Source of the DNA: a virus
Taxonomy: Duplodnaviria > Heunggongvirae > Uroviricota > Caudoviricetes
Length of the DNA stretch: 21,069 nucleotides
Reading direction: 5' to 3' (one strand)
Virus record (IMG/VR): IMGVR_UViG_2630968342_000014
The notes below the pieces were generated by a model, which saw only the letters and a program-made list of their open reading frames with translations, had not been told where the DNA came from and did no database searches. This document shows, piece by piece, positions 5,243 to 21,069 of the stretch (position 1 is its first letter; each line of letters begins with the position of its first letter). The position numbers and the translations under genes are program-made.

Positions 5243-5370
5243 TTTGTTCTCCACTTTATATGCGCTGCACCGCGCTGAATTTTGGTTAAAGAAAACCCTC
5301 GCCATCAGGCGATTATTGAGTCAATTATGTTTCCATAAATGCCCCCGCAGGGGCATTTGCAGTAATGAAA

Positions 5371-6195
5371 TCAGGCGGTGAAAGTACCAATAAAGGTTTC
5401 TGCTTTGCTGTCTTTAAATTTCTCAACAAGCAGATCACGAAATTCGTTAGCCATTTCTTCCTGCACTGCTTCCAGCTGAATAATGCGCAGAACCAGTACA
5501 GGACGATCGCCAGTGATAATGCTGAGGCGTAATTTAAACGGACGTTCTTTCAGGCCTTCAAACGGAACGCATTTAAATTCAAATGCCACTGGCATAATGT
5601 CTTTGGTCTTCGCTTCGACAGACTCCATCAGGGAGCGTTTGCCGCTGAAGTCATTATCTTCAAAATCAGCGGTCTGGTTTGCTTCAATCGTGATTTTACG
5701 GACTACCGCAGCCGCTTTTGTTGCCTTAATAGCGTCACCATTAGCATCAAAGCCCACAAGATAGTCGGCCCAGTCTTCAATCCATTCTGCCAGTGACTTC
5801 TGGGAGTTACGCTCGCCGTTAACAGACAACAGAGCAGAGAACGGTGCTGTCTTTTTCAGTTTGAGTGTGGCGGTGTTATCTGCGTGACCTGGTTCACCAA
5901 TAGTACCCAGGTTAAGCACACTGACGGCACGCATATTATCAGCATCGATAAAGCAGCGGGTGCCTTCATCTGCAAGATCTTTAGAATAACGGGTAAAGTC
6001 ATCGATGCTGGCAGTGGAAAGCGCACCACGGAAACGGAAGCGATTTAAATTAAATTTTTCCAGATCATGAATGCGGAAATTCTCAGGCAATGCCACAGCA
6101 TCGGCACCAATCTTACTGATAATTTCATTAACACCCTGAGCAGAAATAAGGGCATGGATTTGATTAATTGCGGTTGCGTCTAAGTTCTGAGACAT
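5371..6195 (-). CDS. YfdQ-like protein (DUF2303 family), function unknown
   Basis: 274-aa ORF, ATG at 6195 with GAGGA Shine-Dalgarno. Size and gene order (P-Q-R-S-T) match the CPS-53 yfdQ position; family name from memory. Confidence 0.6.
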
Positions 6196-6260
6196 AATAA
6201 GTCCTCACTATATTAAGATATTCAGTGATGAGATAAATAATCAGTTAATTAAGAACGATA

Positions 6261-6623
6261 TTAATGACCTGCTGCGCGGAGTTTTCCGTCAGGTTCACCG
6301 GCAAGAGTCAGTAATTGTCCCTGGTCTTCCTGCAGAATAGTCAGGCGACCACCGCGATTGACATACATCGGCGTTTCGGTGGTGTCTTCTTCGGAAATTT
6401 TCCCGCGGTTAGTCGGACGAACATATGAGAGTTTGTGTTTTATTTTCACACGGTTCTCATCAAACGGTTCGATTTCCAGGTTGAGCGAGACCTTCCCTTT
6501 GGTTTTCGTGTTCATCACACCTGAAGCGACTTCACTGAGAACAGCGCCGATTTTGGTTTCAAATACGCCGCCGTCCAGCTCCCCGATAAATGCCTGCACA
6601 TCAGTACTGCGTTCGCTAGCCAT
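6261..6623 (-). CDS. YfdP-like small protein (120 aa), first gene of the early-left operon
   Basis: The track ORF 6261-6809 begins at a TTG with an implausible Cys/Arg-rich extension. The in-frame ATG giving MASERSTDVQAFIGELDGG... is preceded by GAGGAG Shine-Dalgarno. Start coordinate derived from ORF-track frame arithmetic (codon 63 of the track ORF). Confidence 0.6.
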   Translation of the reverse strand: MASERSTDVQAFIGELDGGVFETKIGAVLSEVASGVMNTKTKGKVSLNLEIEPFDENRVKIKHKLSYVRPTNRGKISEEDTTETPMYVNRGGRLTILQEDQGQLLTLAGEPDGKLRAAGH

Positions 6624-6760
6624 TTTGCTGCTCCTCATCATATCGACCCTGCAAGGTCGGTTGGTTTCTCCACAAAACAGAGAAGAACACCTGCGGTGGC
6701 AGCCGCCCGGATGGATTGGGTTATGAGCCCGTCGTCCGGTGATGCTCTTCTCTGTTTTGT

Positions 6761-6806
6761 AAAAAGAGCGGTACCAGCCGGAAGCAAGTGTACAAACTGG
6801 TACCGC
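6761..6806 (-). terminator. Candidate intrinsic terminator in the leader of the early-left operon (tL-like)
   Basis: Minus-strand RNA: GCGGUACCAG, 19-nt loop, CUGGUACCGC, then UCUUUUUAC. Perfect 10-bp GC-rich stem (plus 6768-6777 and 6797-6806) followed by a U-tract. The plus orientation has no U-tract. Confidence 0.45.
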
Positions 6807-7094
6807 CAAAGCAGTGGCTGTTGTGGTGACCGGTGCTGATCTCCGGCTTGCGGTTATTTCAGACTCTCACGGGCGTTTAATTGCCCCGCCGAACAGCTCT
6901 TTTCCGCAATAGCTGCAATGTCTTTCGCGCATCAGCCTGCGCATTCACCACAACTCTAAGGATTCTCTCTGGTTGAAAATACTTAGCTGTTATGTGCCTG
7001 CTTTTAGCCACATCAGGCGAGGTGGACCTGGTTATTCCCCAACAACAAGGATTCGGTTAATCTGGTTATCCCCAACAACGCAAAAGGAAAAGAA

Positions 7095-7529
7095 ATGTCC
7101 GGTAATATCTACACGTTGTACAAATCCCACTGTGAAAATGTTGGAAAGTATCGGGGCATTGAAATCAGTGGGATAGTGTCATCAGTCGAAATAAGCAAAG
7201 TGGAATCAAGGGCAACATTACTTACTCTTCTGGATCTTGTCTTACATGAGCACCGGAAGAAATTCGGCACTCCCTATAATCAGTTGAATGGGAAAAAGGC
7301 TCTGGTTCACCTTATTCTGATGAAGCATCACTGGATGCCAAAACAGATTAATGAGATGAAATTTGATGAACTTCTTCTTTCAATTCAGGATGAACTCACA
7401 CTTGATAAAATAAGCGTAACCGCCCAGAAATTTTTAGATTATCGAGACTGGAGATCACAAATTCATCACTTTGATGATTTTGACGAAAATGAATGGGATC
7501 CTAATTTGTCTGCACAATATCTAAAGTAA
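7095..7529 (+). CDS. Hypothetical accessory protein (144 aa), no recognisable domain
   Basis: ATG at 7095 with AAAAGGAAAAG Shine-Dalgarno. Visibly more AT-rich than flanking phage genes. Opposite orientation to the surrounding early-left genes; two 18-19-bp direct repeats lie just upstream and a plus-strand intrinsic terminator lies downstream. Confidence 0.55.
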   Translation: MSGNIYTLYKSHCENVGKYRGIEISGIVSSVEISKVESRATLLTLLDLVLHEHRKKFGTPYNQLNGKKALVHLILMKHHWMPKQINEMKFDELLLSIQDELTLDKISVTAQKFLDYRDWRSQIHHFDDFDENEWDPNLSAQYLK

Positions 7530-7915: not shown

Positions 7916-7972
7916 TATGTGGTTTGAACGAGTAGCCAAGGAGTGCAAGGATTATCAAAAAAAGGAGGTTGT

Positions 7973-8863
7973 ATGGAAGACGCGCTTTACGCTTTTAATT
8001 ACACACAGAACCGGGACAAGTTATTTGCTAACTTGATTAGCATCATTGATGGAATCATTGCAGATGGAGTTGTCCGTGAAGAGGAGGTTCTTTACTTAGA
8101 TACATGGTTACTTGAAGCAAAGCAGATTATCAATAATGGAGTTATAAAAAGTCTATCTGCTCGGGTGTCGGATATTCTTGCGGATGGAATAATCACATCA
8201 GAAGAACGTGATGACCTTAAAAATAGCCTTCTCCAAATACAGAGGGAAATTCTTGATATCCCTGAAATTGATTTTTACTCCAAGGATGTAGATGTCCATT
8301 TACTTAATGGACTATGTAAAGGATTAATTGCTGATCGGAACTTAACTCAAGAAGAAATAAGATATCTTAATTGGTGGCTTGAGCAAAATGGAGCTTTGAA
8401 GAACAACTACCCAGGAAAAAAACTTTATGCACTTGTAAAGGAAATTCTTAAAGATGGTGTTATTACTGAAGATGAGAGTTTAACTCTACATAAGGCATTA
8501 GTAGACTTCACAGGATGTGACTTGGAAAGTGGGGTGGTGGATGGTTTGGCGACCAGGCTGCCTATTGATGTAGGGGCTTCGATAGAGTTAGAGGGTAAAA
8601 CCTATTGTCTTACAGGCACTTTTGTTGCAGGAAAGAGAGCCGTAGTTGAAAATTTGATTAAAAATGCTGGTGGGAACATCAGTAGTGGAATTACTCAAAA
8701 GTTGGATTTTTTAGTAATTGGGACGCTTTCCTCCCGTGATTGGAAATTCTCTAGTCACGGAAGGAAGATCGAAAAGGCTATATCTTATAGGGATGATAAT
8801 GGTGCAAAACTTAAAATTATTTCTGAAGAAATGCTTTTCGATGCATTACCAAGTTCGCGATGA
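7973..8863 (+). CDS. BRCT-domain protein with four N-terminal ~40-aa helical repeats (accessory gene)
   Basis: The track ORF starts at GTG 7943, but the ATG at 7973 has an AAAGGAGG Shine-Dalgarno. C-terminus (GKTYCLTGTFVAGKRAVVENLIKNAGGNISSGITQKLDFLVIGT...KLKIISEEMLFDAL) has the pattern of a BRCT domain like the C-terminus of NAD-dependent DNA ligase. N-terminal half carries four repeats of the form L-x-x-ILADG-x-IT-x-EE-x-x-L. AT-rich. The 3' end overlaps the cI 3' end. Confidence 0.7.
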   Translation: MEDALYAFNYTQNRDKLFANLISIIDGIIADGVVREEEVLYLDTWLLEAKQIINNGVIKSLSARVSDILADGIITSEERDDLKNSLLQIQREILDIPEIDFYSKDVDVHLLNGLCKGLIADRNLTQEEIRYLNWWLEQNGALKNNYPGKKLYALVKEILKDGVITEDESLTLHKALVDFTGCDLESGVVDGLATRLPIDVGASIELEGKTYCLTGTFVAGKRAVVENLIKNAGGNISSGITQKLDFLVIGTLSSRDWKFSSHGRKIEKAISYRDDNGAKLKIISEEMLFDALPSSR

Positions 8864-9532
8864 CCAGAATACCCTACCTATAACATGAATTCTGGCTCGT
8901 CTATCTTCAAAGGTGAGTATTTCATCTGGGTACTCATCTTTGTTGAAGCTTCTAAGAATCAAGCCACCGTCAGGTAAGTTGATAAGTATTTTAACCCTTA
9001 GCAATACACCATCTCGTACGGCATAAAGATCGCCATCACGAATAGGAACGGTTTGAGAAATATCAACGGCAACAAGATCTCCATTATTGAGAACCGGTAA
9101 TAAACTGTTCCCCCATATTTGTACGATCTTGGCATTAGATGCACATACGCCAGATTTTCTCAAATCTGCTCTTCTTAACGGAAACCAGTCAATAGCTGAT
9201 TCAACTATTTCAGCCAGACATCCGTTACCTGCCGATAACTCGACATCTAAAACAGGAATGTTTACGAAAATATCGGGGTCTAATGCGGTGCTTTCTGCTT
9301 CTTTTACAACAAGATCAGGTATGGATGCGTTGTCTTCAATACCAAGTTGTAACCACTTTTGTGATACACCTAAAACTTTTGCAATTTCTTTAATTTTGCG
9401 CGGTTGTAGAGTTTCGCCATTCTCTATTTTGGCTACAGATTGTTGTGAAAGTCCAATTTTTTCAGCTAGTTGAGCTTGGCTCATGCCAGCTTTCTCTCTA
9501 CCTATCTTTAATCGTTCTGCCAGTGTTTTCAC
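8846..9532 (-). CDS. cI: cI-like prophage repressor (HTH_XRE N-terminus, S24 LexA-like autopeptidase C-terminus)
   Basis: N-terminal XRE-type HTH (LAERLKIGREKAGMSQAQLAEKIGLSQQSVAKIENGE). Probable Ala-Gly cleavage site (ELSAGNG). Catalytic Ser (WGNSLLP) and Lys (LLRVKIL) in the C-terminal domain. GTG start at 9532 with AGAGGGA Shine-Dalgarno. Divergent from a Cro-like gene. Confidence 0.9.
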   Translation of the reverse strand: MKTLAERLKIGREKAGMSQAQLAEKIGLSQQSVAKIENGETLQPRKIKEIAKVLGVSQKWLQLGIEDNASIPDLVVKEAESTALDPDIFVNIPVLDVELSAGNGCLAEIVESAIDWFPLRRADLRKSGVCASNAKIVQIWGNSLLPVLNNGDLVAVDISQTVPIRDGDLYAVRDGVLLRVKILINLPDGGLILRSFNKDEYPDEILTFEDRRARIHVIGRVFWSSRTW

Positions 9533-9916: not shown

Positions 9917-10496
9917 CCACAGTTTTAAGGAGATAGCCGTGGGTAAGCATCACTGGAAAATAGAAAAACAGCCTGAGTGGTACGTGAAAGCTGTCAGAAA
10001 AACTATCGCGGCGTTGCCGGGGGGTTACGCTGAAGCCGCTGACTGGCTGGATGTAACAGAGAACGCTTTATTCAATCGCCTTCGTGCCGATGGCGATCAG
10101 ATTTTCCCGCTGGGATGGGCAATGATTTTACAACGTGCTGGTGGAACTCACTTCATTGCTGACGCTGTGGCGCAGTCTGCAAATGGCGTCTTTGTGTCTC
10201 TTCCTGACGTCGAGGATGTGGACAACGCCGATATTAACCAGCGTCTGCTGGAAGTCATTGAACAGATCGGCAGTTATTCCAGACAGATTCGTTCAGCAAT
10301 CGAAGACGGTGTAGTGGAACCGCATGAGAAGACAGCAATTAACGACGAGCTGTACCTCTCAATTTCGAAGCTCCAGGAGCATGCAGCACTGGTCTACAAA
10401 ATCTTCTGCGCTCCAGAAAATAGTAACGCCCGCGAGTGTGCAGCTCCGGGCGTCGTGGCGTCGATTGCTTCTGGTTGTGGAGAAACTAACGCATGA
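9906..10496 (+). CDS. CII-like regulatory protein (YdaT / phage CP76-type, by position and size)
   Basis: The track ORF starts at TTG 9834; the in-frame ATG at 9906 (MKSNHSFKEIAVGK...) overlaps the cro-like stop. About 196 aa. Immediately downstream of cro as in YdaS/YdaT-type immunity modules. Family assignment from memory. Confidence 0.5.
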   Translation: MKSNHSFKEIAVGKHHWKIEKQPEWYVKAVRKTIAALPGGYAEAADWLDVTENALFNRLRADGDQIFPLGWAMILQRAGGTHFIADAVAQSANGVFVSLPDVEDVDNADINQRLLEVIEQIGSYSRQIRSAIEDGVVEPHEKTAINDELYLSISKLQEHAALVYKIFCAPENSNARECAAPGVVASIASGCGETNA

Positions 10497-10641
10497 ATAG
10501 TTTAACGGCAAATAACCGTTTGTCGCAACAGCTGGTGGTCAGCGTCGCTGAACACCTGTTGTTACGGCATGAATGCAGATTACCAAATCACCTGGCTGTA
10601 AGTAACCACAGAGAACTTTACCTGACTGTGGGGGGCGAGTT

Positions 10642-10821
10642 GTGCAGGAACTTAACCGCTGGTTTCGTGACGGAAGAGGACTTTATGTTCATGTTATTCG
10701 TTGGGAGCCAGAAACACAGCGCGTTATCTATCTTCGCAAAGACTACCCGCATGAGTGCTTTAGTCCTTTGTGGAAATTCAGGCGTGATTTTGTTGAGTGT
10801 GAAGGACCACCAGCATATTGA
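10642..10821 (+). CDS. Possible small ORF (59 aa, GTG start), not in the ORF track
   Basis: Hand translation: VQELNRWFRDGRGLYVHVIRWEPETQRVIYLRKDYPHECFSPLWKFRRDFVECEGPPAY, read from GTG at 10642 with a G-rich Shine-Dalgarno (GGGGGG at 10630-10635). Lies in a 600-bp gap that the track covers only with an implausible N-terminal extension of the rha ORF. Confidence 0.3.
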   Translation: MQELNRWFRDGRGLYVHVIRWEPETQRVIYLRKDYPHECFSPLWKFRRDFVECEGPPAY

Positions 10822-10907
10822 TTCTGCCATTTCGGGACGTTACACTGTCTCTGCACCTTATAAAGCGGGTGCCGGGATTGGCGTCCTGAAATTGATTACT
10901 GAGCATA

Positions 10908-10928
10908 ACCGCGCTCATGCGGTTTTTT
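10908..10928 (+). terminator. Candidate intrinsic terminator (tR1-like position)
   Basis: ACCGC-GCTCAT-GCGGT followed by TTTTTT: 5-bp GC-rich stem, 6-nt loop, U-tract. The reverse strand lacks a U-tract after the stem. Confidence 0.4.
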
Positions 10929-11098
10929 CGTGTCATGAGCATTGCTACGCCCAAATTATGGTGGGGCGTACAGGGCCGACTTCGGTCGGGCCGGGTTCGG
11001 TAGTCTCCGGTAACGCCAACCCTGTACGTCTCACCACCTCTGTGATTGGCGTCCCATGTGGTGAGTTTTCTAAAAAACTGACTACCGGGGCTGTCACT

Positions 11099-11656
11099 AT
11101 GACTACTCTCCCAACCCTCTCTCAACCTGAAATTGCCATCGTTGATGGTCAGGCTGTTACATCTTCTTTGGCTGTTGCTGACTTCTTCTCTAAACGTCAT
11201 GACGATGTTCTGAAAAAGATCCGCATTTTGGATTGTTCTCCAGAGTTTTGTGCCCGCAATTTTGCGGAGACATCAATTTTGGTACGCCAGCCCAACGGCG
11301 GTACTCGCAAACTACCTTGCTATCAAATAACCCGCGATGGCTTCGCGTTCCTTGCTATGGGCTTCACGGGTAAACGTGCTGCCCAGTTCAAAGAGGCATA
11401 CATCAATGCCTTTAACCAGATGGAGAAACAGCTTTCAAATCCCTCTGTACTGAGCGACGTTGCACATAACGCCAGCGTTCTCTATTCCTACATTTCATCA
11501 ATTCATCAGGTCTGGCTGCAGCAGCTTTATCCCATGTTGGCAAAAGCCGAATCCCCGCTGGCTGTAAGTCTGTATGACAGCATCAACGACGCGGCGCTAC
11601 TGGCCAGTCTCATAAATTTGTCGCTGAACCCTTCAGAGGTAAGGGGGCGCAAATGA
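11099..11656 (+). CDS. rha: Rha-family phage regulatory protein
   Basis: The N-terminus from the ATG at 11099 (MTTLPTLSQPEIAIVDGQAVTSSLAVADFFSKRHDDVLKKIRIL...ITRDGFAFLAMGFTGKRAAQFKEAYINAFNQME) matches the Phage_pRha domain pattern. The track ORF 10493-11656 fuses it to an upstream extension that looks non-coding. Confidence 0.8.
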   Translation: MTTLPTLSQPEIAIVDGQAVTSSLAVADFFSKRHDDVLKKIRILDCSPEFCARNFAETSILVRQPNGGTRKLPCYQITRDGFAFLAMGFTGKRAAQFKEAYINAFNQMEKQLSNPSVLSDVAHNASVLYSYISSIHQVWLQQLYPMLAKAESPLAVSLYDSINDAALLASLINLSLNPSEVRGRK

Positions 11657-11877
11657 TCCGGAATATTTTCAAACGGTTTACCAATCAGACTTTCCGTTGT
11701 CCTCGTCCTGGTCAGTGGTACACCACGCCTGCAGGGCATGTTCTACGTGTTAGCCTGGTTGACCGTGAATGTCAGAAGGTGGTTTGTGAACCGCTGGGCC
11801 GTAATTACCGCGTCAGTATGCCGCTTATAGCCTTTTGCTCCGGAAAAATGTTTAAGCGTCTGGGAGGTGTGGCGTGA
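11653..11877 (+). CDS. Hypothetical protein (74 aa)
   Basis: ATG at 11653 overlaps the rha stop (ATGA) with a GGGGG Shine-Dalgarno. No recognisable domain. Confidence 0.5.
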   Translation: MIRNIFKRFTNQTFRCPRPGQWYTTPAGHVLRVSLVDRECQKVVCEPLGRNYRVSMPLIAFCSGKMFKRLGGVA

Positions 11878-12173
11878 ACTGTTTTCAGTTTGTGTGCGGA
11901 TGTGCTTTCGATAACCCGATTCAGCGCCTGATTATGTTGCGTGTTTTGATGTCGGGTTCTTCAGACGGTGAAGGCGAGAGAGTTATTGATCATCAGGTGC
12001 TTGCTGATTTCTGCTGTTGTTCTAAGCAAGCGATATTCAGGGAAACCCTGGCACTGGAAAGAGCTGGTTATCTTCATATCCGAAAAATTGCAACGCTTAC
12101 TATTGATGCAAAAGCCAGACTACAACCTGCGCGTGGCTACACAATTCTCATGCTGCGGAAGGAGGTTGTATGA
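11874..12173 (+). CDS. Hypothetical small protein, possible winged-helix DNA-binding fold
   Basis: GTG at 11874 with GGAGGTG Shine-Dalgarno; alternative ATG at 11934. The 3' end overlaps the start of the replication gene. Fold guess only. Confidence 0.45.
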   Translation: MNCFQFVCGCAFDNPIQRLIMLRVLMSGSSDGEGERVIDHQVLADFCCCSKQAIFRETLALERAGYLHIRKIATLTIDAKARLQPARGYTILMLRKEVV

Positions 12174-13177
12174 GCCGTTACGCCCCCACACCGGAAGTTA
12201 TGGCTATTGGTCAAATTAATATTTCCGGCAATGTTACACCTGCGACCTGGTGGAAATATATTCGACTACCCAGTGGGCGTCCGGATGCGACGGCTATCGC
12301 TCTGCTTTCAGAGATCGTTTACTGGTACCGCCCGACAGAGGTCAGGGATGAGCACACCGGAGCGTTGCTGGGATATCGCAAGCGTTTTCAGGGCGACAAA
12401 CTGCAAAGAAGCTACCAGGCGTTTGCTGAGCAGTTTGGTTTCGGGAAAAGGGAAACCGCAGATGCGCTGAAGCGTCTGCGCGATGCAGGGTTTATTACTC
12501 TGGATTTACGCACGGTGGAAATGCTCGATGGGGTGAAATGCAGCAATATTTTGTTTGTCGGGATCAACCCACAGGCAATTGCGGCCATCACCACACCTTC
12601 TTCTGTTTCGCCAGAAAGTAACAGCAATAATGCAATCAGCGATACAGCTATTACGTTAAAACGGAACACCCCCCGACGTCATAACGGAACAGGGGATACG
12701 CCGAATGTTGATACAAATACAGAGATTACTACAGAGATTACTACAGAGATTACTACAGAGATTACAACGGAGACTAAAAACACTATTGGCGCATCCGCTG
12801 ACGCGTCTGCACCAGCGCGTTCTGCCCGACAGGAATATTCACCGGAATTTGAACAGGCCTGGCAGGAATATCCCAAACGTGCTGGTGGTAATTCAAAATC
12901 CGCCGCTTTTAAAGCCTGGAAAGCCCGAATCAGGGAAGGTGTGACACCCGAAACCATGCTCGACGGTGTGAAACGCTATGCCGCCTGGGTGCGTGTCTCT
13001 GGAAATACCGGTACCCAGTTCGTGAAGCAGGCGTCGACGTTCTTTGGTCCGGATCGTCATTTCGAAGAATCCTGGGAAGTTCCTGCGGTATCTGCAGTCA
13101 GACGCGAGGACCCGTACTTCAAAGCCAGTTACGACAACGTGGACTACAGCCAGATCCCGGCAGGATTCAGGGGGTGA
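12170..13177 (+). CDS. Phage replication initiation protein (O-like / replisome organiser) containing origin-like iterons
   Basis: ATG at 12170 with GGAGG Shine-Dalgarno. N-terminal DNA-binding-like region and C-terminal FEQAWQEYPKRAGG...AAFKAWKARI motif typical of phage replication-initiator C-termini. Four tandem 12-bp repeats inside the coding sequence, as in lambda O where ori lies within the gene. Confidence 0.7.
   Translation: MSRYAPTPEVMAIGQINISGNVTPATWWKYIRLPSGRPDATAIALLSEIVYWYRPTEVRDEHTGALLGYRKRFQGDKLQRSYQAFAEQFGFGKRETADALKRLRDAGFITLDLRTVEMLDGVKCSNILFVGINPQAIAAITTPSSVSPESNSNNAISDTAITLKRNTPRRHNGTGDTPNVDTNTEITTEITTEITTEITTETKNTIGASADASAPARSARQEYSPEFEQAWQEYPKRAGGNSKSAAFKAWKARIREGVTPETMLDGVKRYAAWVRVSGNTGTQFVKQASTFFGPDRHFEESWEVPAVSAVRREDPYFKASYDNVDYSQIPAGFRG
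12719..12775. repeat. Tandem 12-bp direct repeats (ACAGAGATTACT x4 plus a degenerate fifth): candidate ori iterons
   Basis: Read directly at 12719-12766 with a partial copy to 12775; encodes EITT-EITT-EITT-EITT in the replication protein. Position and periodicity are analogous to the lambda ori iterons within O. Confidence 0.7.
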
Positions 13178-13179
13178 GC

Positions 13180-13668
13180 ATGAGTCTTTTGAATGACGTT
13201 CAGAAATTCATTGAAGCCCATCCGGGGTGTACTTCCGGAGACATTGCGGATGCTTTTGCTGGTTACTCACGGCAGCGCGTTCTGCAGTCAGCAAGCAAGT
13301 TACGTCAGAGTGGGCGTGTGGCTCACCGTTGTGAAGGAGATACACGCAGACATTTCCCACGCCTGACTGAGAGAGCGCAGGATCCGGAACCACAACCAGT
13401 TCGTGAAACCAGACCTGTGCGCAATTTCTGTGTCGGCACTAACGACCCGCGGGTGATTTTGTGCCTGACCCGCCAGGCGGAAGAACTGGAGTCCAGGGGC
13501 TTATACCGTCGTGCTGCAACGGTGTGGATGGCGGCATTCCGTGAAAGCCACTCCCAGCCAGAACGAAACAATTTTCTGGCGCGTCGTGAACGGTGTTTAC
13601 GGAAAAGCAGTAAGCGGGCTGCATCAGGTGAAGAGTGGTATCTCTCAGGGAATTACGTGGGGGCTTAA
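13180..13668 (+). CDS. Hypothetical protein (about 162 aa), Arg-rich C-terminus
   Basis: The track ORF starts at GTG 13174; the ATG at 13180 has an AGGGGG Shine-Dalgarno. Occupies the position where lambdoid phages carry P/helicase-loader-type genes but is too short to be a DnaC/P homologue. No confident family. Confidence 0.45.
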   Translation: MSLLNDVQKFIEAHPGCTSGDIADAFAGYSRQRVLQSASKLRQSGRVAHRCEGDTRRHFPRLTERAQDPEPQPVRETRPVRNFCVGTNDPRVILCLTRQAEELESRGLYRRAATVWMAAFRESHSQPERNNFLARRERCLRKSSKRAASGEEWYLSGNYVGA

Positions 13669-14321
13669 TGAGTAATAAATATTGCCAGGCGCTGGCGGAA
13701 CTGCGGAACAAACCAGCCCATGAACTGAAGGAAGCGGGCGATCAGTGGCGCACGCCGGACAACATTTTCTGGGGAATTAACACTCTGTTTGGCCCGTTTG
13801 TTCTGGATCTGTTTACTGACGGTGATAACGCCAAATGTGCTGCGTATTACACGGCGGAAGACAACGCGTTGGCGCATGACTGGTCAGAACGCCTTGCGGA
13901 GCTTAAAGGTGCTGCCTTTGGTAATCCCCCATACAGCCGCGCCAGTCAGCATGAGGGGCAATACATCACCGGCATGCGTTACATCATGAAGCATGCCAGT
14001 GCCATGCGTGATAAAGGCGGGCGCTATGTTTTCCTGATCAAAGCTGCCACCAGCGAAGTGTGGTGGCCGGAAGATGCAGATCATATTGCTTTTATTCGCG
14101 GGCGTATTGGTTTTGAACTGCCTGCCTGGTTTATCCCGAAAGACGAAAAGCAGGTGCCAACAGGTGCTTTCTTCGCTGGTGCTATTGCTGTTTTCGACAA
14201 GACCTGGAAGGGAGCGGCAATCAGCTACATCGGGCGCGATGAACTTGAGGCATGTGGTGAGGCATTTCTGGCGCAGGTTCGCCAGCAGGCGGAAAAACTG
14301 GTCAGGGAGATGGCGGCATGA
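13668..14321 (+). CDS. Phage DNA N6-adenine methyltransferase (Dam-type)
   Basis: The ATG at 13668 overlaps the upstream stop (TAATG). Contains the N6-MTase catalytic tetrapeptide NPPY (AFGNPPYSR). The track ORF starts further upstream at 13635. Confidence 0.8.
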   Translation: MSNKYCQALAELRNKPAHELKEAGDQWRTPDNIFWGINTLFGPFVLDLFTDGDNAKCAAYYTAEDNALAHDWSERLAELKGAAFGNPPYSRASQHEGQYITGMRYIMKHASAMRDKGGRYVFLIKAATSEVWWPEDADHIAFIRGRIGFELPAWFIPKDEKQVPTGAFFAGAIAVFDKTWKGAAISYIGRDELEACGEAFLAQVRQQAEKLVREMAA

Positions 14322-14644
14322 CGACATTAACTCAATGCCAGCAGCAGGTGCTGGATATGCTGATTTCTTATCAGAAAGAACGTGGCTTCCCGCCAACCAA
14401 TCAGGAGGTGGCAACCATGCTGGGATACCGTTCGGTGAATGCAGCGGTGGAGCATCTTCGCGCACTGGAGAAAAAAGGTGTCATCACGATAAAGCGTGGC
14501 GTGGCCCGGGGTATCACTCTTCATACCGCGGTGAAGGACGACGACAGCGAGGCGGTCGGGATTATCCGCGCCCTGCTTGCCGGTGAGGCAAACGCCAGGC
14601 TGCGTGCAGCCCACTGGTTACATGAGAGGGGCCTGAAAGTATGA
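14318..14644 (+). CDS. LexA-like protein consisting only of the N-terminal DNA-binding domain (no S24 peptidase domain)
   Basis: 108 aa; LTQCQQQVLDMLISYQKERGFPPTNQEVATMLGYRSVNAAVEHLRALEKKGVITIKRGVARGITL aligns residue by residue with the E. coli LexA N-terminal winged-HTH as I recall it (LTARQQEVFDLI...[36 protein letters not shown]...SRGIRL). The ORF ends after the linker, so the autocleavage domain is absent. Confidence 0.75.
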   Translation: MTTLTQCQQQVLDMLISYQKERGFPPTNQEVATMLGYRSVNAAVEHLRALEKKGVITIKRGVARGITLHTAVKDDDSEAVGIIRALLAGEANARLRAAHWLHERGLKV

Positions 14645-15036
14645 AGCTAATACTGCCTTTTCCGCCCAGCGTGAACACGTACTGGCGACACCCCAACAAA
14701 GGGGCGTTTGCTGGTAAGAGCCTGATAAGCGCGGCGGGGCGAAAATTCCAGAGCGCGGCGTGTGCAGCAATAGTTGAGCAGTTACGTCGTCTGCCGAAAC
14801 CAACGTCGGCACCTGCTTCAGTGGAGATCGTGTTGTTTCCTCCGGATAACCGGATCCGCGATCTGGACAACTATAACAAGGCGCTGTTTGACGCCCTGAC
14901 CCACGCGGGTGTGTGGGAAGACGACAGCCAGGTGAAAAGAATGCTGGTGGAGTGGGGACCGGTTATCCCGGAAGGGAAGGTCGAGATCACTATCAGTAAG
15001 TACGAAAAAGCGAGTTGCAAATTAGCAACTCGGTAA
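14641..15036 (+). CDS. rusA: RusA-type Holliday junction resolvase
   Basis: 131 aa; the N-terminal LPFPPSVNTYWRH and central RDLDNYNKALFDALTHAGVWEDDSQV match RusA signatures (compare E. coli RusA LPWPPSNNRYY...[26 protein letters not shown]). ATGA overlap with the upstream gene. Confidence 0.85.
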   Translation: MKLILPFPPSVNTYWRHPNKGAFAGKSLISAAGRKFQSAACAAIVEQLRRLPKPTSAPASVEIVLFPPDNRIRDLDNYNKALFDALTHAGVWEDDSQVKRMLVEWGPVIPEGKVEITISKYEKASCKLATR

Positions 15037-15081
15037 CGGAATTGAGCAACACCCTAAATTTGGGTATTACCTCGTTAAAGA

Positions 15082-15101
15082 TACTGTATTTATGAACAGT
15101 G
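15082..15101. promoter_or_regulatory. Consensus LexA (SOS) box upstream of the KilA-N gene
   Basis: TACTGTATTTATGAACAGTG read directly: CTGT (15084-15087), 8-nt AT-rich spacer, ACAG (15096-15099), matching the CTGT-N8-ACAG SOS-box consensus. Lies about 100 bp upstream of the ATG at 15199. Confidence 0.7.
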
Positions 15102-15198
15102 TATCCTTGATAACTATTAAAAATCGCAGTAAGTTCATCCTGCATCAACGAAAAGGGAGTGCAGTCCCGCTCGTGGATAAAAATTTGTGGAGAAACCA

Positions 15199-16014
15199 AT
15201 GAATCAGTTGCTTGTAATTGATGGCGTTTCTGTGCGCCAGTACTTCGAATCTAACTACTGTCTTAACGACCTTCAGAAAGCTGCTCTTCTTGCCGCTGGT
15301 GAGAATCGCTCCTCCCGTTCGCTGGAAGTTCACGAGTTTATGCGTCGTCCTGAAACGAAGGCTCTTGTGGAATTATTGGAAGAAGAAACTACGGGAGATT
15401 CCCGTAGTATTCCTGTCATCACCATTCAGGGGCGCAATGGTGGGACGTATGTCTGTAAAGAGCTGGTCTATGCATATGCAATGTGGATCAGCCCGGCATT
15501 CAGCTTAAAAGTGATACGTACTTTTGATGCGCTTCATAATTCATCACCAGAAGAAACCACATCCGACAAAATTAAATCCGGGGTCATTCTGCTTGAATCA
15601 GCAGCAAAGACTCTAAATCTGTCAAACTCCTCGAAACTTGGTGCATACCAGAAATTATCAAAGGTAGCTGGTCTTCCTGAACTTATGCCGATCTATGCCA
15701 TTGATGCACCTGCTGATGCGCCAGATGGTTCAAGCCGCCCTACGCTGTCGCTGAGTGCACTGCTGAAGCAGTATGGTATCCGCCTGACGGCTAATCAGGC
15801 ATATCACCAGATGGCGAAGCTGGGGATCGTTGAACAACGCGAACGATACAGCCGTACCGCGATTAACAACATCAAAAAATTCTGGTCGCTGACAGCGAAA
15901 GGCTGCATGTTCGGCAAGAACATCACCAGTCCTGCAAATCCGCGCGAGACGCAGCCGCATTTCTTCGAATCCCGATTCCCTGAGCTGTTAAAGCTGCTCG
16001 ATACCGTTCATTGA
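15199..16014 (+). CDS. KilA-N domain protein (antirepressor-like)
   Basis: The ATG at 15199 has a GGAGAAACC Shine-Dalgarno (the track starts at GTG 15187). The N-terminal region (IDGVSVRQYF...GTYVCKELVYAYAMWISPAFSLKVIRTFD) fits the KilA-N DNA-binding domain pattern. Confidence 0.7.
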   Translation: MNQLLVIDGVSVRQYFESNYCLNDLQKAALLAAGENRSSRSLEVHEFMRRPETKALVELLEEETTGDSRSIPVITIQGRNGGTYVCKELVYAYAMWISPAFSLKVIRTFDALHNSSPEETTSDKIKSGVILLESAAKTLNLSNSSKLGAYQKLSKVAGLPELMPIYAIDAPADAPDGSSRPTLSLSALLKQYGIRLTANQAYHQMAKLGIVEQRERYSRTAINNIKKFWSLTAKGCMFGKNITSPANPRETQPHFFESRFPELLKLLDTVH

Positions 16015-16015
16015 G

Positions 16016-17011
16016 GTGACCGTGAGAGCACTACTGACCCCTGAAATCGCCCCGCGTATGGGGATCGTATTGTTCAGGCCAGGTTCAGAGCTGATGCCCC
16101 TGTTTATGCAGGGGCGTGTCCTGCTGGAGCCTGAGCCGGAACGTTATTCATCTTTTGCCAGTGGTGCCGTTCCGGCAGCATCACAACCGCTGGCGGATGA
16201 TCCTGCCGTTCGGGCCGTGTTCCGCCATGAGGCGGTGATCCGTCGTGCTGGTGGCGTGGAATGCCTTGAGAGCTGGTTACTTCGTGAAAAGGGCTGTCAG
16301 TGGCCTCATTCCGACTGGCACAGCGAGAACATGACCACAATGCGGCACGCGCCAGGCGCAATCCGTCTGTGCTGGCACTGTGACAATCTTCTCCGTGACC
16401 AGTTCACGGAACGGCTGGAAGCAATGGCAACGGATAACTGTGCCCGCTGGGTGTTGTCTGTTGTGCGCCGTGATCTTGGTTTTGATGACAGTCACGTTGT
16501 GACAATGCCGGAACTGTGCTGGTGGCTGATTCGTAATGACCTGGCGGATGCCTTACCGGAAAGTGCAGCCCGTAAGGCACTGAGATTACCGAAGCCTGTT
16601 GTGCCGTCTGTCACCCGGGAAAGTGACCTTGTGCCTTCGGTTCCTGCCACCAGCATCATCCAGGATAAAGCGAAAAAGGTGCTGGCGCTGAAAGTGGATC
16701 CGGAGTCGCCGGAGTCTTTTATGTTACGCCCCAAACGTCGCCGCTGGGTTAATGAAAAGTACACGCGCTGGGTTAAGACGCAGCCGTGTGCATGTTGTGG
16801 AAAGCCTGCTGATGATCCCCACCATCTGATAGGCCACGGTCAGGGGGGAATGGGTACAAAAGCGCATGATCTCTTTGTGTTGCCTTTGTGCAGAAAGCAT
16901 CACGACGAGCTGCATGCGGATACCGTGGCATTTGAAGAGAAGTATGGCTCCCAGCTGGAGTTGATATTTCGTTTTATCGATCGTGCGCTGGCAATTGGTG
17001 TGCTGGCCTGA
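16016..17011 (+). CDS. DUF968-like protein with C-terminal HNH-like Cys/His zinc-binding motif
   Basis: C-terminus CACCGKPADDPHHLIGHGQGGMGTKAHDLFVLPLCRKHHDELH resembles the DUF968/HNH-like motif of Nin-region proteins in lambdoid prophages. Start uncertain: GTG at 16016 or 16022 after a GAGGTGA Shine-Dalgarno. Confidence 0.6.
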   Translation: MTVRALLTPEIAPRMGIVLFRPGSELMPLFMQGRVLLEPEPERYSSFASGAVPAASQPLADDPAVRAVFRHEAVIRRAGGVECLESWLLREKGCQWPHSDWHSENMTTMRHAPGAIRLCWHCDNLLRDQFTERLEAMATDNCARWVLSVVRRDLGFDDSHVVTMPELCWWLIRNDLADALPESAARKALRLPKPVVPSVTRESDLVPSVPATSIIQDKAKKVLALKVDPESPESFMLRPKRRRWVNEKYTRWVKTQPCACCGKPADDPHHLIGHGQGGMGTKAHDLFVLPLCRKHHDELHADTVAFEEKYGSQLELIFRFIDRALAIGVLA

Positions 17012-17028
17012 TTTTGTGGAGAAAGTTG

Positions 17029-17385
17029 ATGCGTGATATGTATGAAGTAATGGATCGTTGGGGAGCTTGGGCTGCTTCAGACAATAGCGGAGTGGACTGG
17101 CAGCCGATAGCGGCTGGTTTCAAGGGACTTTTACCTCATGGCAAAAAGTCACGGATTCAGTGTGATGATGACGAAGGCATCATGATAGACAGTTGTGTGG
17201 CTCGGTTGAGAAGGTATAAACCAGAGGAATATGAGCTCATCATCGCCCACTTTGTTATCGGTATCTCATTACGTACTATTGCGAAGAAGAGAAAATGCTC
17301 TGATGGCACAATTAGGAAGGAACTGCAAACTGCAATGGGGTTTGTTGACGGCTGTTTAGCAATGTTAGCTTATAGTATGGCATAA
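17029..17385 (+). CDS. Q: Late-gene antiterminator Q (small Q family)
   Basis: The ATG at 17029 has a GGAGAAAG Shine-Dalgarno (the track starts at TTG 17014). Motifs MDRWGAWAA, IAAGFKG, QCDDDEG and KCSDGTIRKELQ match the small Q-antiterminator family of phage 21/Rac-type prophages as I recall them. Confidence 0.8.
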   Translation: MRDMYEVMDRWGAWAASDNSGVDWQPIAAGFKGLLPHGKKSRIQCDDDEGIMIDSCVARLRRYKPEEYELIIAHFVIGISLRTIAKKRKCSDGTIRKELQTAMGFVDGCLAMLAYSMA

Positions 17386-18579
17386 AAAATAAAATAGATT
17401 TACTGCCGATTTTTCAAAAAAGACTGGGAACTGTTTATATCCAACGTAAATAAGGCCTCCATAAAACATGGCTGATGCGAGATATTTAACAGTTCTCATC
17501 CTTTTTTTAGCTTTATCAATCAAACCTGTAATGCTACTCTTAATACTATCTGCATTATCTTTGATTTCTTTATTTTCTTCAAACTTTAAATACTTATCGA
17601 AAGCGGACTCCACTCGAGAACGTAAGTTGTCGAATGTTTCATTGAATATCTCAATAGAAATGTAATTGACTTTTTTTATCATCCAAAGTCCTGCGATAAT
17701 CAATATTGCTTCGGTTGTTTCATTAGCCTTCACTAAGCCACCAGCAGCTATTAATGCACCGGGAATAGTCAATGCTTTTGTCTGATTAGATGATATGAAT
17801 TCGTTAATTTTACTCGTGAACTCAAGATTTTTCTCATCGAGTTCGTTAAGAATTTTATTTACAGAAAACCTCTTTGTGTAAATCTCATATAGTTCATCAT
17901 ATTTTTTCCTGACGAGTTCAGTAGAGTTAAGCAAGTCAAAGAAATTGAACGTACCATTTGCTTTAAATACTTCGTTTATGGCTGAGCGTATAACGAGCTT
18001 GCGCTCGCTTTTGTGTAAATCATTGATTTTTATTGTGTCGAGAAGCTCCTTTATAATTTCATATTTAAGAGACGAGTTCGATAAGCGATTAATCTCGCTA
18101 TATTGTAAAAAATGCGTGAGTTCGACTGTATAACTTTTGTCTTCATTGGTGAAAAATAAGACAGAGCAGTCACTGTTATGATGATCAGCAATTAATGAAA
18201 GGATATCTTTCCACATAAAGAAAATATGGATTTTTTCGATGCTTTCATTCTTAGAAGTAGGGAGTATTAACGGCGTTCCGATGATATAATTTTTCGGAAG
18301 AGCGTTTTGGGTGTTTACTCTAGACCAAAAAGACTCAACATTCTCATAAATTATAGCGTCATCCCAAGATGAAGCTTGGCGATCTAGCCAAATTTCATTA
18401 TTTTCGATGCAGGTTGTTGCCTTTTTATAACCTATAGATTGTAACAGTCTAATTATTTCAGAACTATTTACAATAACAATGCTTTCTTCAAGACTTATGA
18501 CAGTGTAGTAGCCCTCAACTCTGCTTGAGGCTCCGTTAATAATCTGCGCTAATCTTGATAAGTCATCAGCAATTGTCAT
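17365..18579 (-). CDS. Membrane protein (404 aa): about 265-aa soluble N-terminal domain plus C-terminal transmembrane segments; second gene of the AT-rich cassette
   Basis: The ATG at 18579 lies 2 nt after the upstream stop (coupled). Hydrophobic stretches ALTIPGALIAAGGLV, AILIIAGLWMI and YLASAMFYGGLIYVGY near the C-terminus. AT-rich. The 3' end overlaps the 3' end of Q by 21 bp (convergent). Confidence 0.65.
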   Translation of the reverse strand: MTIADDLSRLAQIINGASSRVEGYYTVISLEESIVIVNSSEIIRLLQSIGYKKATTCIENNEIWLDRQASSWDDAIIYENVESFWSRVNTQNALPKNYIIGTPLILPTSKNESIEKIHIFFMWKDILSLIADHHNSDCSVLFFTNEDKSYTVELTHFLQYSEINRLSNSSLKYEIIKELLDTIKINDLHKSERKLVIRSAINEVFKANGTFNFFDLLNSTELVRKKYDELYEIYTKRFSVNKILNELDEKNLEFTSKINEFISSNQTKALTIPGALIAAGGLVKANETTEAILIIAGLWMIKKVNYISIEIFNETFDNLRSRVESAFDKYLKFEENKEIKDNADSIKSSITGLIDKAKKRMRTVKYLASAMFYGGLIYVGYKQFPVFFEKSAVNLFYFLCHTIS

Positions 18580-18581
18580 TA

Positions 18582-19757
18582 TTAGCTGTCTCTATATCTT
18601 TTGAGTTCATCATAATTTGCCTGACTCAATTTTATCACAATTTCGCATTTGTTGTCAGTGAGAATTACAGGCTTATTTGACTTTTCGTCTCCAATAGCTC
18701 CACGCATTATTTTCAACTTAAAATTATTGTCGTTATCTGCCACTTCAATTGTAAGCGCGCTTTCAGCTGCTTTAGGAGTTGGTTCAAATTGAGGGTCAAT
18801 CTGGAAACCATTAAGATTAACAAAATCGACAAACGTTCCCTTACATTTGTGTGAATCAGTCAGGCATGAGTCAATTATTTTTGAAATATCCTCTATCTTA
18901 ACGGACTTATTTCCGTGTTTATCTTTTGATTTTTTTTCCAGTAAGGATTTAACTTCATTGTCAATAGTATCACGCAGTACACGACCGAGTGAGTTTTTAC
19001 TAGCAAAAATATCTATAGCACTGAATAATTGCTGAATGCTTCTTTTATTGTCCGAATCATGTCGGCAACCTAATGAGTCTTTGAAAAAATCGCTTTTAGA
19101 TTTACCTTGCAAGAAATGTACATATGAGTCACCCTTGTTTTCTGGATAACTGGCTTCGAATAAAGTTAAATCGAACATCGCAGCCTGCCGTAAGGCATCG
19201 GTATTAATTGGATTTAATCTTGTTGGGGTCAACTTATCCGAATCAAAGTCATAGGCGCTTTGTTTATCAACCATTACGATTAGAAGTTTCCCCAAATCCT
19301 CTGGTTCGGTAGACTTATAGTGGATGAAAACAACGCTCCCCCCCTGAAGTTGGGCAACTCTCGATTCGTTATTAGCATTATGTTTAAGCTTCTCTATTAT
19401 AGCTCTAGATAAATCAATGAATTCATTATTTTTATTAATGTATTTTTTTAGGATCGTAGGAATGGATGAAGGGTTGTGATCTGAGTCTAGGAAGTTATGA
19501 AATTTGTTTTTTCGGCTAAATTTTTTCTCAATTCTGGTTATGAATTCAGATGTGACTTCATTTTTTAGATCCCAAACTTCACCTAATCGATAATCAAATG
19601 CTCTTGAATCATTTTTTTCAAGATTTGCTGTTACAGCACCAATAGGAAAGTACGATTGTTTGCCCAGCACTACAACATGAGGCGTGGCACCGCATTTATC
19701 GCAAGCTACAGTTGGGTCGTCAAGAACATTGCCACATTCTAAACAAGTTATATCCAT
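18582..19757 (-). CDS. Zinc-ribbon plus NdpA/YejK-like (nucleoid-associated protein family) domain protein; first gene of the AT-rich cassette
   Basis: ATG at 19757. N-terminal C-x2-C-x12-C-x2-C zinc ribbon (CLECGNVLDDPTVACDKCG). Central region GGSVVFIHY...LLIVMVD...YVHFLQGKSKSDFFKDSLG parallels the E. coli YejK/NdpA blocks GGFVLFCHY...YLTFLKG...DFFMDFLG, recalled from memory. Strongly AT-rich with A/T-ending codons. Confidence 0.65.
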   Translation of the reverse strand: MDITCLECGNVLDDPTVACDKCGATPHVVVLGKQSYFPIGAVTANLEKNDSRAFDYRLGEVWDLKNEVTSEFITRIEKKFSRKNKFHNFLDSDHNPSSIPTILKKYINKNNEFIDLSRAIIEKLKHNANNESRVAQLQGGSVVFIHYKSTEPEDLGKLLIVMVDKQSAYDFDSDKLTPTRLNPINTDALRQAAMFDLTLFEASYPENKGDSYVHFLQGKSKSDFFKDSLGCRHDSDNKRSIQQLFSAIDIFASKNSLGRVLRDTIDNEVKSLLEKKSKDKHGNKSVKIEDISKIIDSCLTDSHKCKGTFVDFVNLNGFQIDPQFEPTPKAAESALTIEVADNDNNFKLKIMRGAIGDEKSNKPVILTDNKCEIVIKLSQANYDELKRYRDS

Positions 19758-19875
19758 TATATATCCCGAATTATAAGAATGAATTTTTATGTGGCTGAAA
19801 ATTCTATCAAAACACTAACGCGTACGCAAAAAGTATTGTATTGTGTTAAGAGTGGTTACTTCGCCACACAACTTA

Positions 19876-19899
19876 AACCCGCCACTGAGCGGGTTTTTT
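19876..19899 (+). terminator. Intrinsic terminator (plus-strand orientation)
   Basis: AACCCGC-CACTGA-GCGGGTT followed by TTTTTTG: 7-bp stem, 6-nt loop, run of six T. The reverse orientation has only a 3-U tract. Confidence 0.6.
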
Positions 19900-20023
19900 G
19901 TACCTGTAAACTTGGTGCAGTACAGTAAACACGCTGGTGGTCGTGAATACTGGCTTTTTATCTTGCTGGCTTTTTAGACAAGAGTTATTGGTATGTCACG
20001 TTAACCGGAAAGGGTAAAAAGAC

Positions 20024-20221
20024 ATGCTGAAACAGCAGGATATGACAGAAACCGCCAGAGTTGTGTTTGATGAATTAAGCGTTACCGAACCGGCGACAGT
20101 CGGGGAGATTGCGCAGAATACTTACCTTTCACGCGAACGCTGCCAGTTAATACTGACCCAGCTTGTTATGGCGGGTCTGGCAGACTATCAGTGCGGTTGT
20201 TACAGACGCCTTCAGTCCTGA
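20024..20221 (+). CDS. Small winged-helix-like regulator (65 aa), possibly PapI/FaeA-like
   Basis: ATG at 20024. TVGEIAQNTYLSRERCQLILTQLVMAGL resembles small wHTH regulators. A stem-loop with T-run (GCCTTC-AGTCCT-GAAGGC-TTTTTATTT, about 20207-20234) overlaps the stop. Family guess is low confidence. Confidence 0.45.
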   Translation: MLKQQDMTETARVVFDELSVTEPATVGEIAQNTYLSRERCQLILTQLVMAGLADYQCGCYRRLQS

Positions 20222-20355
20222 AGGCTTTTTATTTGTGGTGAATGGGCGGCTGGTGGGGGGGCGACACCTGTCAGTCCTTTGCTTATGTGTTGATGATAAT
20301 TTACCTTTTGGGGCTATAATTGAGCTAACCAATTGCTAATGAAAGTAAAATTATA

Positions 20356-21069
20356 ATGGCTGTTGTCTGTTCAGTTATCATGGTTTGCTCCCCAATTAAT
20401 ATTTTTCTTGAAAAGGATACGTTGTCACTTAAGCCAGGCTCAGTTGTTCTGGCCACCAAATGCATCAGGGAGCTTTTCCTTATGCATTATGGCAAAGTTA
20501 AAATTGTCGATATAAGCGAATCCGTCGTAAGTCAATATCTGGAAAGTCAGCATAAGCTGACGAGGACTCGTCTGACTGACATTCCGCTTTACCTGTTGCT
20601 GGAACCCAACAATCCTGCGTTGGCTGCGGCTTTAATTACCAGCCAGGGATTTTCCGGAGAGGCCACGGATATGTTTCTTATGATGGCCTGCCTGTCTCTG
20701 TTTGAAACAGATGAACGGATGTCATTGTTTTTAAGTGGATGTTTATCCAGCATAAGTGCCAAAGTCAGGGCGATAATTCAGACAGATATATCAGCAAGCT
20801 GGACGCTTGGTGCGATTGCTCTACAGTTGCATATGAGTGAGAGTTTGTTAAAGACAAAACTGAAAAATGAAGGGGGCATGTTCAGTCGCTTGTTGCTGGA
20901 AGAGCGGATGCGTGTTGCTGTAAATATGTTATGTTCCCGGCATGGATATGGACAGGCTATAGCAGAAAAATGCGGTTATTCAAGCAGGTCCTACTTTATT
21001 TCTGTATTTCACCGCTATTATGGCTTCCCGCCAGACAGATATGTATCCAGGCAAGGGCTTGATTATTGA
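20356..21069 (+). CDS. AraC-family transcriptional regulator, EnvY/AppY-like
   Basis: C-terminal double-HTH: RAIIQTDISASWTLGAIALQLHMSESLLKTKLKNEGGMFSRLLLEERMRVAVNMLCSRHGYGQAIAEKCGYSSRSYFISVFHRYYGFPP closely parallels EnvY/AppY as recalled (IIQSDIQHYW...LLKKKLKNE...CGYSSTSYFISVFK). N-terminus MAVVCSVIMVC parallels AppY MDYVCSVVFIC. Stop codon at the window end. Confidence 0.8.
   Translation: MAVVCSVIMVCSPINIFLEKDTLSLKPGSVVLATKCIRELFLMHYGKVKIVDISESVVSQYLESQHKLTRTRLTDIPLYLLLEPNNPALAAALITSQGFSGEATDMFLMMACLSLFETDERMSLFLSGCLSSISAKVRAIIQTDISASWTLGAIALQLHMSESLLKTKLKNEGGMFSRLLLEERMRVAVNMLCSRHGYGQAIAEKCGYSSRSYFISVFHRYYGFPPDRYVSRQGLDY

Follow-up and report, generated by a model that had tools for sequence, protein, structure and literature searches.

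A two-gene cassette beside the antiterminator Q gene of a lambdoid prophage is the DS-1 anti-phage system

An AT-rich pair of minus-strand genes in a 21,069-nucleotide stretch of viral DNA (IMG/VR record IMGVR_UViG_2630968342_000014, hereafter the window) is the DS-1 anti-phage system, carried by a lambdoid prophage. The cassette is a rediscovery of an already known system. A first-pass annotation, made from the letters alone, had described the two genes as a candidate defence module and had recognized no named system in the pairing. The pair does have a name, "DefensePredictor discovered system 1" (DeWeirdt, Mahoney & Laub, bioRxiv January 2025; Science 2026; PMC13092281), and its genes are called DS-1A and DS-1B below. 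New here are the conservation of the gene pair and the variable cargo slot in which the pair resides. The analysis also links DS-1 with PANGU, a type of system reported independently; neither of the two reports mentions the other. From this link follows a mechanism for DS-1 that can be tested, in which a YejK-like protein senses that the host chromosome is being destroyed.

The cassette encodes DS-1

Both proteins score well above the curated cut-offs of NCBIfam equivalog models. DS-1A matches NF053868 (DS1_1_antiphage, "nucleoid-associated anti-phage protein") over its full length with 451.4 bits (cut-off 330, E = 2e-135), and DS-1B matches NF053869 (DS1_2_antiphage, "anti-phage protein") with 375.2 bits (cut-off 315, E = 3e-112). 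The profile search proposed in the first-pass annotation places both proteins in anti-phage families, not in a non-defence one. DS-1A is residue for residue WP_000355468.1, agreeing in all 391 amino acids with Table S8 of the DefensePredictor study, and DS-1B is WP_000150292.1, with identity across the 399 residues printed in the same table. The system bears the working ID D390 in that study, and its Tables S6, S8 and S11 name exactly these two accessions (PMC13092281). In recent RefSeq, loci with 100% identical DNA carry WP_000355468.1 and WP_000150292.1 under the product names "nucleoid-associated anti-phage protein" and "anti-phage protein".

The published system and the pair in the window share identical proteins and gene order, and both are prophage-borne in E. 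coli. The published clone was derived from a different E. coli strain (GCF_003886375.1), and its insertion site is undescribed in PMC13092281. The cassette is present at a coverage of at least 80% in 106 of 5,426 complete E. coli genomes, and a Klebsiella copy, 85% identical, likewise abuts a Q gene. A search of PADLOC-DB v2.0, another check that had been proposed, matched neither protein at E values up to 1; this library dates from 2023 and is older than DS-1.

DS-1 restricts phages that degrade the host chromosome

That the cassette might serve in defence had been a guess, and it is borne out by published plaque assays on identical proteins. The transcription unit with its native promoter was placed on a low-copy plasmid in E. 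coli MG1655 and challenged with 24 phages (PMC13092281). Expressed as −log10 of the efficiency of plating (EOP), the effect of DS-1 was 7.6 for Bas1, 2.7 for Bas26, 1.7 for both Bas3 and T3, 1.0 for T5 and 0.9 for T7, with smaller plaques for Bas26, Bas3, T3 and T7; for SECphi27 the value was about 0 and the effect consisted of smaller plaques only (Table S7, PMC13092281). The table has no further entries for DS-1 (D390), and T4 and lambda are absent from these seven. The restricted phages comprise Drexlerviridae (Bas01, Bas03 and SECphi27), the T5-like Demerecviridae member Bas26, T5, T3 and T7. Phages of the T1, T5 and T7 types degrade the host chromosome, which fits DS-1 as a sensor of chromosome integrity.

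The cassette is a horizontally acquired module

The TAA stop codon of DS-1A is followed, after a gap of 2 nt, by the ATG of DS-1B on the same strand, the layout of a single transcription unit (Table 1). DS-1B converges on the Q gene, and the 3′ ends of the two share 21 bp (17,365-17,385). This arrangement of two coupled minus-strand genes overlapping Q is as first described, and the AT-richness of the cassette, also remarked upon at that time, is pronounced: its GC content is 34.9%, compared with 51.8% for the phage genes to its left (10,000-17,013) and 44.7% for the DNA to its right (20,024-21,069). The two open reading frames (ORFs) are not products of chance, as they are long in AT-rich DNA, have many homologues and give strong profile matches. 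The cassette represents an anti-phage module of two genes that was gained by horizontal transfer and occupies a cargo (moron) slot of the prophage.

DS-1 likely carries its own promoter region immediately upstream of DS-1A. A consensus scan found the putative promoter elements TTGATA-16 nt-AAAAAT at 19,810-19,783 and TATAAT at 19,775-19,770 (string positions), and this region appears specific to the cargo, other loci being dissimilar to the left of position 19,814. No RNA family was found within or beside the cassette in an Rfam scan.

The two genes are inherited together

Whether the two genes co-occur outside this prophage had been set as a test of the module, and they do. In all eight distant contexts examined (Pectobacterium, Serratia, Pseudoteredinibacter, Pseudoalteromonas, Pseudomonas, a metagenome contig and one further genome assembly), a DS-1A gene is followed by a DS-1B gene that overlaps it or nearly abuts it. 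The DS-1B homologues of Pectobacterium, Serratia, Pseudoteredinibacter and Pseudoalteromonas (41, 33, 30 and 30% identity, respectively) directly follow NA37-type genes encoding 387-392 amino acids. In Pseudomonas, the DS-1A homologues are followed by proteins of 425 and 439 amino acids that profile comparison identifies as DS-1B homologues with a probability of 100%, and an exhaustive profile search recovered two far more distant DS-1B members, each with an overlapping NA37 gene in front of it. The surroundings of the pair include a P4-like satellite, the border of a Pf prophage, a prophage immunity region, and islands with BstA, AbiEii or Abi_2. Of the two proteins, DS-1A is the more conserved.

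DS-1A is a YejK-like protein with a zinc ribbon

Judged by sequence and predicted fold, DS-1A is a YejK paralogue with an added N-terminal zinc ribbon. Both halves of this description had been anticipated in the first-pass annotation, which saw a C4 zinc ribbon joined to a domain resembling NdpA/YejK. The match to the Pfam NA37 domain (PF04245) has an E value of 1.2e-23, and the structure of E. coli YejK (PDB 9be2) is matched with E = 1.2e-9 by sequence and E = 1.4e-14 by fold. The latter is the sole significant fold match of the AlphaFold2 (AF2) model, which has a mean predicted local distance difference test score (pLDDT) of 85. DS-1A thus shares the NA37 domain and the overall fold with YejK/NdpA, a 37-kDa housekeeping nucleoid-associated protein (NAP) of E. 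coli. Unlike YejK, it has a zinc ribbon, a prophage location and a constant partner in DS-1B. We also considered that a phage had taken up the YejK of its host, which would make DS-1A an orthologue, and rejected this, as DS-1A scores 81.4 bits against the YejK equivalog model NF001557, whose cut-off is 341, and is only ∼19% identical to YejK.

Orthologues of 33-56% identity all retain the four cysteines of the ribbon (C5, C8, C19 and C22), and the matches to zinc-ribbon families in Pfam are weak. Of 46 family members, 21 have the ribbon; in the others, an acidic tail (the Pseudomonas branch) or nothing takes its place. Since about half of the family is without it, the zinc ribbon appears to be a subfamily feature of the enterobacterial branch that lies outside the core mechanism. 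In P. aeruginosa (loci L007-L009, positions 5001-7422), the zinc ribbon is missing, the NA37 protein carries an acidic N-terminal tail, and the two genes are situated on the edge of a Pf-type filamentous prophage that has Zot and DUF2523 genes.

DS-1B is a dedicated partner protein

The sequence features of DS-1B suggest a dedicated partner protein whose N-terminal domain is acidic and cytoplasmic and whose conserved C-terminal half is hydrophobic or membrane-active. Residues 1-220 have an isoelectric point (pI) of 5.16 and a net charge of −8, close to the family medians of 5.1 and −8.5; toward the C-terminus the protein turns basic and hydrophobic. Residues 221-303 form a core of a long helix and two short hydrophobic segments (ALTIPGALIAAGGLV and AILIIAGLWMI). 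Conservation peaks at residues 221-280, where the long helix enters the first hydrophobic segment and columns are invariant or nearly so. In the AF2 model (pLDDT 84.6), an α/β domain (residues 1-165) is followed by very long helices that flank a short hydrophobic hairpin. The C-terminal transmembrane segments of the first-pass annotation need a correction: hydrophobic helices are present there, and their hydrophobicity is only weak, with a single 19-residue Kyte-Doolittle peak above 1.2, near residue 300.

DS-1B belongs to a large family, with 777 clusters at 50% identity for E values up to 1e-3 and 372 for E values up to 1e-10. No Pfam family matched DS-1B, also when all 44 aligned homologues were scanned, no PDB sequence was matched by the single sequence or by a profile, and a tblastn search of deposited phage genomes gave no match. 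Of the fold and profile checks that had been proposed for both proteins, the one on DS-1A led to YejK and the one on DS-1B gave only generic helical fold matches.

DS-1 probably acts in the manner of type II PANGU

Operons that pair a YejK-like NAP with an effector have been described under the name PANGU (Li et al., bioRxiv 10.64898/2026.04.06.716658). In type II PANGU, Pag2A is the NAP and Pag2B the effector; the N-terminal domain of Pag2B is acidic and "DNA-mimicking", and its C-terminal region is transmembrane. Both genes of the E. coli type II system are needed, neither is toxic alone, and the phenotype varies with the multiplicity of infection in a manner resembling abortive infection. 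Pag2A and the acidic domain of Pag2B bind each other at 19 nM, GFP-tagged Pag2A departs from the nucleoid during T4 infection, and T4 mutations that escape PANGU map to denA, which encodes endonuclease II. In the model proposed for PANGU, phage-induced degradation of the chromosome sets the NAP free to bind the effector and activate it (all from 10.64898/2026.04.06.716658).

DS-1 shares the type of NAP and the operon layout of type II PANGU. DS-1A, with 391 amino acids and an NA37 E value of 1.2e-23, lies within the limits set for the NAP (at least 300 amino acids; NdpA/NA37 E value below 1e-10), and the 2-nt gap of the DS-1 genes lies within the bicistronic limit of less than 40 bp. DS-1B may resemble Pag2B in layout, its N-terminal part having a pI of 5.2, a net charge of −8 and an acidity seen across the family, although this acidity is moderate and the hydrophobic segments are weak. 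Both systems occur in E. coli and are widespread in mobile elements and defence islands. We consider it probable, with moderate confidence, that DS-1 works by a PANGU-type release of its nucleoid protein from a degraded chromosome and the consequent activation of the partner. In an uninfected cell, DS-1A would be held on chromosomal DNA. Destruction of the host chromosome by a phage would release it, free DS-1A would bind the acidic N-terminal domain of DS-1B, the membrane-perturbing part of the bound DS-1B would be switched on, and the infected cell would stop making phage. For DS-1, we infer each of these elements (DNA tethering, release, binding of the two proteins, membrane damage and abortive outcome). 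The idea of a DNA-binding sensor coupled to a membrane abortive-infection effector, put forward in the first-pass annotation, matches the type II PANGU model.

Several observations weigh against this proposal. The likeness of DS-1 to type II PANGU is one of architecture and published description, and the phage spectra differ: DS-1 blocks T1-, T5- and T7-like phages and not T4, whereas PANGU-Ecu blocks T4 and is reported to be inactive on T1 and T5 (10.64898/2026.04.06.716658). The zinc ribbon of DS-1A has no place in the PANGU model, and the text of the preprint contains neither "DS-1" nor "DefensePredictor" and no occurrence of "zinc" (10.64898/2026.04.06.716658). In DS-1B, the N-terminal acidity is mild (net −8 over 220 residues), the hydrophobic segments are short and weak, and a fold search returned generic helical matches in which likenesses to CorA, ClyA, MakA and AhlB were non-significant. 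Finally, the sole remark on DS-1 in the DefensePredictor paper is that the YejK domain is newly implicated in defence, and the paper gives neither mutants nor a mechanism (PMC13092281).

The differences in spectrum and in the zinc ribbon raise the possibility, which we regard as unlikely though worth considering, that DS-1 is a variant distinct from type II PANGU. The ribbon would then provide a second or different trigger, and the partner would be a new conditional membrane-inserting helical effector. Such a trigger could, for instance, be a phage protein, or else DNA ends that arise from degradation of the T1, T5 or T7 type and not from that of T4; if so, the complementary phage spectra of DS-1 and PANGU would be explained.

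It is improbable that DS-1 interferes with the phage directly and spares the cell, with DS-1A, held or concentrated at the membrane by DS-1B, binding phage DNA as it enters or replicates and blocking its injection, replication or packaging, and the zinc ribbon recognizing phage DNA or a phage protein. The very large drop in EOP of Bas1 (7.6 logs) would suit such a scheme, as would the DNA binding known from homologous YejK-family proteins, the strict conservation of the ribbon in the enterobacterial branch and hydrophobic segments in DS-1B that could be a mere anchor. However, the gene pair persists in the roughly half of the family that is without a ribbon, DS-1B is most conserved in its hydrophobic core and not in a linker, as suits an effector better than an anchor, and type II PANGU acts as an abortive-infection system.

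The killing step might instead be defined by a pore or channel, with DS-1B as a conditional α-helical pore former of the ClyA/MakA/AhlB kind, in which a hydrophobic hairpin sits at the tip of long helices, or as a CorA-like channel. This reading, which takes the weak fold likenesses at face value, is improbable; the fold of DS-1B matches no known pore or channel significantly.

Many prophage-borne defence systems act in a toxin-antitoxin-like manner, and this common mode, together with the tight coupling and constant co-inheritance of the genes, is what speaks for a membrane toxin DS-1B restrained by DS-1A and freed upon host shut-off or degradation of DS-1A. This reading is very unlikely, as the PANGU components are non-toxic singly and the NAP is an activator and not an antitoxin, and DS-1A, at 391 amino acids, far exceeds the usual size of an antitoxin and is better conserved than DS-1B.

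The Q-proximal slot holds variable cargo

The position of DS-1 was compared among prophages sharing the DUF968-Q left flank. Alignment of the left junctions places the left edge of the cargo at about 17,351-17,368, and the right junction falls at 19,814-19,900, where a block of 76 nt is conserved in all five loci compared. In the empty site of an O145 prophage, this block starts within about 30 nt of the Q stop codon and reads CGCAAAAAGTAT...GTTAAGAGTGGTTACTTCGCCACAC..., followed by a hairpin and T6. In the window, the block is intact to the right of the cassette and ends in a GC-rich hairpin and T6 (19,875-19,899). It is also present in 230 deposited phage records, many of them Stx-converting, and in Stx phages Q precedes it and a 65-amino-acid ORF, tRNA genes and stx come after it. 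The block is probably the late promoter (PR′)/qut and terminator region, but no Rfam family or annotation names it.

The cassette had been thought to sit where PR′/qut normally lies, and displacement or destruction of the Q-dependent late promoter region by the cassette was considered. This was rejected, as the block found immediately after Q in the empty site has remained whole at 19,825-19,900; the cassette lies in between, with the Q stop codon on its left and the retained block on its right.

The suggestion that the site is a hotspot for morons proved sound, with the slot holding differing cargo across prophages. Elsewhere it contains minus-strand genes for a KwaB-like and a hypothetical protein, a minus-strand NYN-domain gene, or a plus-strand gene of 205 amino acids, and phage vB_EcoS-569R4 has a different minus-strand gene pair there. 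These genes share the insertion point of DS-1, and most of the cargo is oriented against Q, the minus-strand genes converging on it as DS-1 does. The encoded proteins are unrelated to those of DS-1, and their role in defence is mostly suggested by annotation. The interval between Q and the block could be mined for further defence genes.

Table 1. Coordinates of the cassette, its protein domains and the adjoining elements in the window
Feature	Position	Strand	Basis
Antiterminator Q gene	17014..17385	+	Pfam Phage_antitermQ, E = 3e-47
DS-1B, anti-phage partner, 404 amino acids	17365..18579	−	ORF; NF053869; phrog_5023, E = 2e-158
DS-1B C-terminal hydrophobic helices, residues 366-403	17371..17484	−	Sequence; AF2 helices 337-383 and 385-403
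DS-1B most conserved core, residues 221-303	17671..17919	−	Conservation; hydropathy
DS-1B acidic N-terminal domain, residues 1-220 (α/β domain plus helices)	17920..18579	−	Charge; AF2 secondary structure
DS-1A, nucleoid-associated anti-phage protein, 391 amino acids	18582..19757	−	ORF; NF053868; Table S8 identity; AF2 model
DS-1A NA37 (YejK/NdpA-like) domain, residues 64-376	18630..19568	−	Pfam PF04245; PDB 9be2
DS-1A C4 zinc ribbon, residues 5-22 (CxxC-10 residues-CxxC)	19692..19745	−	Invariant cysteines
Likely DS-1 promoter and ribosome-binding region, cargo-specific	19755..19813	−	Consensus scan; other loci dissimilar left of 19814
Conserved Q-proximal block, 76 nt, right edge of cargo slot	19825..19900	+	Conserved in 5 of 5 loci compared

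Other features of the window

A second AT-rich, cargo-like gene (GC about 36-40%) is found at 7943-8863 on the plus strand. Its 306-amino-acid product carries a BRCT domain at the C-terminus (Pfam E = 1.4e-6) and weakly matches the PADLOC candidate PDC-S48 (E = 2.7e-7). The gene converges with an 18-bp 3′ overlap on that of a cI-like repressor (helix-turn-helix and S24 peptidase domains; 8846-9532, minus strand), the same layout as that of DS-1B and Q. In the early-right region of the prophage, Rfam matches at gathering level to the Hfq-binding small RNA isrK (10,853-10,929, plus strand, 59 bits) and to the C4 antisense RNA (10,954-11,041, plus strand, 82 bits) lie inside or overlap a 387-amino-acid ORF (10,493-11,656).

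To the right of the cassette, a 65-amino-acid ORF (20,024-20,221, plus strand), annotated as a "TrmB family regulator" in some O157 genomes, is followed by the gene of an AraC/YdeO-like regulator (20,356-21,069, plus strand). Neither is part of DS-1, as both are present in prophages without the cassette. In a strain with an identical cassette, this ORF and the regulator are followed by genes for tRNA-Ile, tRNA-Arg and tRNA-Arg, a SASA esterase gene and the lysis genes; the latter lie ∼5 kb further to the right, in agreement with the initial proposal that they fall beyond the window.

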